A stretch of DNA of 64,000 nt from Eledone cirrhosa (Eukaryota). The stretch spans positions 13,578,001-13,642,000 of the forward strand of contig OZ024762.1 of assembly GCA_964016885.1 (NCBI GenBank), written 5' to 3'. Of the stretch, positions 32,451 through 33,037 are shown one piece after another (the stretch's first letter is position 1; each line of letters opens with the position of its first letter). The translations under genes and the position numbers were made by a program. The notes beneath the pieces are model-generated. The model was not told the origin of the DNA and ran no database searches. It saw nothing but the letters and a program-made list of their open reading frames with translations.

Positions 32451-32504
32451 TAAGTATGCATGTATACGTACATACATATATGTATACAGACGTACAGTAG
32501 CATG

Positions 32505-32543
<39 letters not shown>

Positions 32544-32881
32544 TTTCATTTTGTTTCAATTTATCGTTTTCGGTATGCCTGACCGATTTAACTCACTCAA
32601 TATGCAAATTAGGCTGCTCAGCCGTTAATTTTCATAAGGAAAGTATATACTTTCGAACGTTCAACTATCTGGCAGATGGGTAAACGGTGCTGATGATAGC
32701 TAACAAGCTTGAAACTAGTACATCGTTCCTGTGTCAGTGTTGAACAAAAAGGTGACGTGGTTGCCTTAACACCGTATGGCATAAATTCAGGCTGTTCAGT
32801 TTGTTTACAAACGAACAAAGCGACGTTAGCGCCGCTAAACTGATACGTGCATATATGTATGTGTACCTGTATGCATATGTA

Positions 32882-32925
<44 letters not shown>

Positions 32926-33037
32926 CATGCTACTGTACGTCTGTATACATATATGTATGTACGTATACATGCATACTTACATTTAAGTAAGTGCCATACT
33001 AAGAGTGAGAAATGAAATTTCGTTTTCATTTTGTTTC
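32451..33037 (+). mobile_element. Diverged monomer of the 422-bp family (about 480 bp) with a 93-bp inverted arm
   Basis: 32543-33037 aligns along its length with the array unit and is bounded by the direct repeat TTTTCATTTTGTTTC (32543-32557 and 33023-33037). 32451-32543 is the reverse complement of 32887-32979. It is embedded in TA tracts. Confidence 0.88.
32684..32726 (+). ncRNA. Type I hammerhead ribozyme (diverged copy)
   Basis: ACGGTG-CTGATGA-TAGCTAACAAGCTT-GAAA-CTAGTA^CATCGT. Core intact, N7 is U rather than C, and a stem I pair switches from U-G to G-U relative to the array. Confidence 0.85.

Follow-up and report, generated by a model that had tools for sequence, protein, structure and literature searches.

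The window analysed here is a stretch of 64,000 nucleotides of Eledone cirrhosa DNA (assembly GCA_964016885.1, contig OZ024762.1, positions 13,578,001 to 13,642,000 of the forward strand). At positions 32451-33037 of the window lies a monomeric insertion of subfamily B, composed of two arms placed head to head. Its main arm (32543-33037, plus strand) comprises one 480-nt subfamily B unit and a further 15 nt and, as an earlier note on this DNA had claimed, both starts and ends at a U-rich motif, TTTTCATTTTGTTTC being present at 32543 and again at 33023. The outer end of this arm falls at the second of two recurrent sites, hereafter site 1 and site 2, and lies about 7 nt before the position where site-2 ends are commonest. 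Between site 1 (32979) and site 2 extends the tail (32980-33037, plus strand), with a predicted fold of two hairpins. The inverted, 5'-truncated arm (minus strand, about 93 nt) extends from 32451 or 32453 to 32543, is without the tail and has its outer end at site 1 (unit position 374); read from the sequence, a single T is common to both arms at the junction. A predicted type I hammerhead motif, likewise read from the sequence, occupies 32685-32725 (plus strand), and its predicted cut follows 32720. The insertion is bracketed by a 12-bp target-site duplication, whose left copy (32441-32452, plus strand; the last 2 bases overlap the element end) exactly matches the right copy (33038-33049, plus strand). 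Within 31000-34500 this 12-mer occurs in two places only, both flanking the copy.

A second insertion, at 16349-22891, is an array of subfamily A units and lies 10 kb from the monomer. Here too the arms are head to head, with one T in common at 19084. The left arm (16349-19084, minus strand) contains 6.5 identical 422-nt units, from unit position 177 to 380, and ends at site 1; the right arm (19084-22891, plus strand) contains nine identical 422-nt units and about 10 nt more, as noted earlier, and ends at site 2. All 13 whole units that we compared are identical, their number being that of the assembly. A sequence match identifies a 58-bp exact target-site duplication in interrupted (TA)n, with its left copy at 16293-16350 and its right copy at 22898-22955 (both plus strand), the latter extending back towards 22892 with one TA-unit difference; a diagnostic 24-mer of this duplication is found twice in 15000-24500, once in each flank. 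The duplications around both insertions had been missed in the earlier note.

The units are 422 bp (A) and 480 bp (B) long, with GC contents of 0.38 and 0.35 and longest ATG frames of 51 and 78 aa. No open reading frame longer than 78 aa is present, and the unit lacks the frame with RT and GIY-YIG domains that defines an autonomous Penelope-like element. In the monomer, the predicted hammerhead consists of stem I CGGUG/CAUCG, the core elements CUGAUGA and GAAA, stem II AGCU/AGCU closed by U-U, and a palindromic stem III of 2 bp (ACUAGU). Across both window copies the core is CUGAYGA and stem I has 5 bp, and stem I is altered on both sides between the subfamilies (U-G to G-U). Every array unit examined contains the motif, with a predicted cleavage position at unit 161. 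No Rfam family reached threshold for the element, the best being HH9 (18.5 bits, E 0.1); matches to miRNA families were rejected as TA-microsatellite noise. The pair G10.1-C11.1, which typifies the ribozyme and not the retrozyme class, is described as highly conserved in these hammerheads in the accessible text of PMC4209133, and stem II is instead closed by U-U in both subfamilies, which lowers the odds that the predicted ribozyme cleaves efficiently. The portion available of a preprint (bioRxiv 10.64898/2026.07.22.740005) gives eight of nine predicted frog elements as being without self-cleavage. Hammerhead-like cores that do not belong to this family are also found in the window at 9792, 26677, 34642 and 58599 (plus strand) and at 24140 (minus strand); these are probably other Penelope-like element ends, although some may be chance matches, since the pattern is loose.

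Non-LTR retrozymes are characterized in the accessible text of PMC7229834 as non-coding tandem repeats of short units, each with a single type I hammerhead, a GC content below 45% and target duplications of more than 4 bp. The element described here has short, low-GC, non-coding tandem units that form arrays at many loci; each unit has a predicted type I hammerhead, in which stems I and II and a short, palindromic stem III accompany the core; and the target duplications at the two window copies are 12 and 58 bp. In the octopus repeat annotation (PMC13282606), the words 'hammerhead' and 'ribozyme' are absent from the accessible text.

Genome copies were counted by sequence patterns. A search of the 3.0-Gb genome with a hammerhead pattern of 35 letters gave 13,167 exact matches, and its reversed control gave none. 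Sampled copies came from a hammerhead-selected set (the first 40 of 47 clusters formed by the 100 matches listed) and two end-selected sets (40 places for site 1 and 20 for site 2, each out of 100 listed), all on one contig, C1. Read on the hammerhead strand, sites 1 and 2 each mark a 3' end, site 1 following CATACTTA and site 2 following the U-rich motif; their spacing, which is the full length of the tail, is 61 nt in subfamily A and 63 nt in subfamily B, and a hairpin fold is predicted for the sequence surrounding them (z -2.3 and -2.1). Among the 81 arms of the 40 hammerhead-selected loci, the outer end falls at site 2 (unit 418-16) in 35 and at site 1 (unit 371-383) in 33. The other 13 end in the internal TA run (9) or elsewhere (4), several of them being arms split or cut by later insertions. 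That 68 of 81 ends lie within 34 of the 422 positions is beyond chance. Ends joined to (TA)n, counted genome-wide with strict subfamily B patterns, number 1,764 at site 1 and 1,648 at site 2; together with the (TA)n flanks of the sampled copies, they correspond to the targets of Penelope-like elements.

The two sites are also distributed between the two sides of an insertion in a near-strict manner. Outside the window we counted 70 inverted pairs, one duplicated pair in L049 having been dropped: 57 combine site 1 with site 2, 11 have at least one uncallable end, two have site 1 on both sides and none has site 2 on both sides. One site per side is hence seen in 57 of 59 callable pairs overall and in 22 of 23 in the hammerhead-selected set; by our own arithmetic, the latter would have a probability of about 3e-6 if each end chose freely. 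Of the two exceptions, L052 seems to have been miscalled past a nested insertion, and L131 looks real. The 40 hammerhead-selected loci contain 28 head-to-head inverted pairs, corresponding to the inverted 5'-truncated copy of Penelope-like elements, and the one-sided tail bounded by two fixed sites in the 57 pairs is equally part of their footprint. A strict test for target duplications was positive in 6 of 59 pairs (shuffled mean 0.8, maximum 4); a looser test was weak (24 of 61, control mean 12.3, maximum 21) and also counted element remnants. From these fixed outer ends, used almost strictly one per side, the programmed integration proposed in the earlier note is borne out, and the two sites are likely to be priming sites, where cDNA synthesis would begin.

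Several further observations concern the sampled loci. The copies at L181-L209 belong to older subfamilies with an AAUA stem II loop, which end at the two sites too, and many of them share one 7-nt deletion that removes stem II. L049 (contig C1:19619000-19628000) contains one inverted insertion, with an identical junction, at both 2293-3478 and 4879-6064, 2.6 kb apart; this pair is a local DNA duplication of a finished insertion. Retrozyme TA runs or flanks have received a short palindromic element at L032 (3425-3620, about 190 bp), L042 and L200.

The inner (5') starts behave differently from the outer ends. Our set of junction ends numbers 140, from which L131 and the L049 duplicate were left out; a pile of 5' ends at unit 310 is an artefact of the internal microsatellite, where positions are poorly resolved. 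At least 94% of arms start away from the U-rich motif, and the starts are spread over the unit. Plotting end positions on the circular unit, as the earlier note had recommended, places the outer ends of the sampled copies at two sites and scatters the starts. Among 72 inverted pairs, 36 have arms that overlap by 1-4 nt at the junction; the shared T at both window junctions, correctly observed before, is thus typical.

The two window copies lie close together, and the identical array units are of a kind seen in collapsed or expanded assemblies; one might thus suppose that one ancestral insertion was amplified locally at the DNA level, or that the assembly is at fault. We regard this as exceedingly improbable. 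Monomer and array unit are 74% identical counting gaps and differ by 13.6% substitutions outside the microsatellite, and each copy has matches without mismatch on contig C1 (arms of L056 and L115 for the main arm of the monomer, arms of L059 and L067 for the left arm of the array). The two copies have separate target duplications; dozens of loci, with differing flanks, show the architecture again; and 32554-32867 is matched without a differing letter by a contig of another sequencing run, which does not cover the repeat-rich junctions. Given the mismatch-free copies and the separate duplications, monomer and array are young insertions that arose independently, the one of subfamily B and the other of subfamily A, with no local copying of one ancestor, and the earlier note was right to treat the monomer as independent and as no artefact. 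Its claim that the two copies have exactly the same end points is too strong: the ends lie near each other, but the main-arm starts are 6-8 nt apart by pairwise alignment (unit positions 418 and 1), the outer ends of the inverted arms are 6 nt apart (374 and 380), and the inner ends of the inverted arms are unrelated (about 300 and 177). Hardly more credible is the reading that the boundaries of an insertion are set by the ends of a linear RNA of unit length, made by ribozyme cleavage. The presence of a hammerhead in each array unit examined would suit it, but a genome-wide pattern covering both subfamilies yields 18 matches, at 11 places, with an end no more than 8 nt from the cut, whereas sites 1 and 2 together account for more than 3,400; only 4 of 140 5' ends are near the cut (about 4 expected), and an arm may contain as many as nine hammerheads that it reads through. 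As had been argued, the ends are not set by self-cleavage, although the distance then given, 140-160 nt upstream of the cut, fits the U-rich motif of the array and not that of the monomer (163-177 nt) or the TAAGTATG end (203-221 nt on the circular map). A third reading takes the U-rich motif as a preferred start and stop, with main arms in register as whole units plus 10-15 nt. Both window copies start no more than 8 nt apart at this motif, and six other junction ends lie at unit 416-421; yet 6 of 140 ends in unit 413-2 compare with 3.5-4.0 expected (P 0.14-0.21), and 8 of 140 in unit 401-2 with 7-8 expected. We therefore consider this reading very unlikely and the shared start of the two window copies likely a matter of chance, while a weak 5' hot spot at the motif may exist at this sample size. 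Of the two preferred priming or termination sites proposed in the earlier note, two fixed 3' sites are upheld, and termination sites are unsupported, the 5' starts being spread.

How the inverted arm arises admits two further explanations. In L1 twin priming, two primers on one linear RNA copy adjacent, non-overlapping parts. A classical process of this type, in which the first cDNA stops at the second primer, would account for the head-to-head geometry, the short junction overlaps and the occurrence of the same variant on both arms, and a few site-2 arms consist of the tail alone (L043, L127). It predicts, however, that 5' ends pile up at site 1, where we find 3 of 140 with about 4 expected; moreover, both arms of L118 carry the same terminal unit, and both arms of the coding element L176 hold the same 3' part. 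We judge twin priming in this form to be unlikely. Somewhat less probable still is an inverted arm that results from fold-back or self-priming, for which the template may be antisense, and that requires no second target-primed event. Fold-back has been proposed for rotifer Penelope elements (PMC3846280, in the text accessible), and the junctions of L036 (3727-3742) and L041 (3246-3261) fall on 15-16-nt palindromes of the unit, although most junctions are asymmetric, with unit positions that differ between the arms, and fold-back alone leaves unexplained a fixed site-1 outer end joined to target DNA with a duplication. Junctions at these two palindromes are also as expected if two cDNA ends anneal there.

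The two arms of a pair were compared where 80 or more columns allowed it, in 41 of 72 pairs; the median arm-to-arm difference is 1.3%, compared with 5.5% to other loci, and none exceeds 8%. Since subfamilies A and B differ by more than this, no pair mixes the two. For 25 of these 41 pairs, the partner arm is more distant than some other locus; the arms thus share a variant, which is not proof of the same molecule. The common variant suggests one RNA primed twice; gene conversion between the arms may be an alternative source. At L118 (contig C1:84312450-84316960), units alternate between two haplotypes with a period of two, and the short inverted arm has the private haplotype of the long arm's last unit; this arrangement would fit both primers lying on one unit, and conversion between the arms could also give it. 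Alternating variants are also found at L035, L127 and L157, and at all four loci the alternation could record either a dimeric template or a two-unit DNA duplication. Among the variants in 11 arrays, 39 are confined to a single unit and 10 are shared.

Taking these results together, we consider it highly probable that the monomer is a separate recent insertion of a protein-free non-LTR retrozyme, with the outer ends of its arms at two fixed sites, and that its likely copying enzyme was an RT plus GIY-YIG endonuclease of Penelope-like type, borrowed by the retrozyme. The ends, their pairing, the duplications, the overlaps and the read-through of hammerheads over several units are observed, and it is from these that we infer the type of enzyme, the way in which cDNA was primed and the use of a single template. 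In the most likely course of events, a Penelope-type protein, borrowed by the retrozyme, would bind the RNA near the tail, and the endonuclease would nick both (TA)n strands, some 10-60 nt apart. Each nick would then prime a cDNA inside the RNA, one at site 1 and the other at site 2; both cDNAs would run upstream on an uncut multimeric or circular RNA and stop at random, after which the two free cDNA ends would join by short microhomology, with host repair filling the gaps. Random stops would make the shared start of the two window copies a coincidence. On balance, we lean towards both cDNAs having been copied from the same RNA molecule. A more specific version, which we put forward tentatively and hold to be possible rather than probable, is that a dimer of the Penelope-type enzyme holds one retrozyme RNA at the 60-nt two-hairpin signal and starts one cDNA per side from each nick, one uncut multimeric or circular RNA being copied twice in the same direction. 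Were this so, thousands of young insertions devoid of an open reading frame would read out the dimer mechanism in vivo, and arrays alternating two haplotypes would record dimeric RNA circles as templates.

The genome is rich in elements with RT plus GIY-YIG (10,596 GIY-YIG candidates). The earlier note had suggested looking among such elements for an autonomous one sharing the retrozyme motifs; in 50 GIY-YIG loci (of 150 listed) and 30 hammerhead-variant loci we found no open reading frame linked to the retrozyme tail or hammerhead. Sharing in the GIY-YIG loci was restricted to nested retrozyme copies (L095, L171, L172), and the solo arms have no shared upstream coding sequence. As no autonomous element shares the tail or hammerhead in these loci, the enzyme is deduced only from its footprint. 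The variant-hammerhead loci were rejected as partners, being older retrozyme copies or chance matches, and a Penelope-like frame at L146, about 1.2 kb upstream of an arm with a TA run between them, was read as a nested insertion. Long frames at L161 (3809-6622, minus strand), L163 (975-4262, plus strand) and L162 (1688-4219, plus strand) span 844-1096 codons from stop to stop, with RT and GIY-YIG motifs, which suggests recently active Penelope-like families. An abundant RT plus GIY-YIG family (L053, L062, L071-L095, L178, L179) carries a hammerhead-like motif with UUGAUAA in place of CUGAUGA as the first core; this precedes GAAA and a palindromic ACCGGU, and the two ends of the family are about 35-40 nt apart.

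The insertion mechanism itself is not new: it is the published Penelope-like signature, here on a non-LTR retrozyme. The proposal that animal retrozymes exploit Penelope-like enzymes has so far drawn mainly on co-occurrence and pLTR similarity. The present family displays the full Penelope-like insertion footprint on a non-coding element, namely an inverted arm, a one-sided tail, two start sites, TA targets and duplications, and has multi-unit arrays inside a single insertion. With the near-strict rule of one site per end and the common variant on both arms, the second-strand step of Penelope retrotransposition becomes testable with a 500-nt RNA. We stress that the parts are individually known and that the gain is a well-counted example rather than a new system.

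In the accessible text of the preprint bioRxiv 10.64898/2026.07.22.740005, non-LTR retrozymes are argued to be non-autonomous Penelope derivatives. Like the metazoan non-LTR retrozymes described there and in PMC7229834, as far as these texts could be consulted, the Eledone copies range from monomers to multimers, have a GC content of 35-38% and have a Penelope-like partner proposed for them; they differ in unit length (420-540 nt) and in having U-U at the usual G10.1-C11.1. In the accessible text of PMC7229834 the word 'inverted' does not occur, and fixed ends and inverted arms are unmapped in that of either source. Where the preprint, in the part available, suggests local tandem amplification, we find multi-unit arms inside one target duplication. 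A two-site, one-per-end rule mapped on a retrozyme was not found in the literature searched, supplements aside, which may bear on it.

The closest structural counterparts are the endonuclease-bearing Penelope-like elements. PMC3846280 describes, in its accessible text, an inverted pLTR, a 31-bp tail on one inverted copy and a duplication around the insert, and the available part of PMC8557442 generalizes this structure to a tail of 30-40 bp, often at one end only, and to (TA)n targets. By comparison with these texts, the retrozyme shares the head-to-head, inverted 5'-truncated copy, the one-ended tail, the (TA)n target and the duplication round the whole insert; it differs in having no open reading frame, a tail of 61-63 nt rather than 30-40, and arms made of whole units rather than pLTR plus open reading frame. 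The coding RT plus GIY-YIG elements of the same genome (L161, L164, L171, L176 and others) resemble it as well: several of their families end at two sites in (TA)n, about 35-50 nt apart, L176 being an inverted pair with one site per side, about 50 nt apart, and several have hammerhead-like cores after the open reading frame. The sequence that they share with the retrozyme is limited to the hammerhead core and chance-level local matches. For the Poseidon element PAc of the green anole, the accessible text of PMC11167929 reports that in vitro both target strands are cut and extended, that reverse transcription starts at two internal sites bounding the genomic tail, and that hammerhead cleavage is dispensable. 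In this autonomous element about 90 nt separate the ribozyme cut from the sites beyond it, as against 213-317 nt in the retrozyme; the likeness to PAc as described there lies in the features of insertion, namely two internal start sites that bound the tail, AT-rich targets and ends unmarked by the hammerhead cut.
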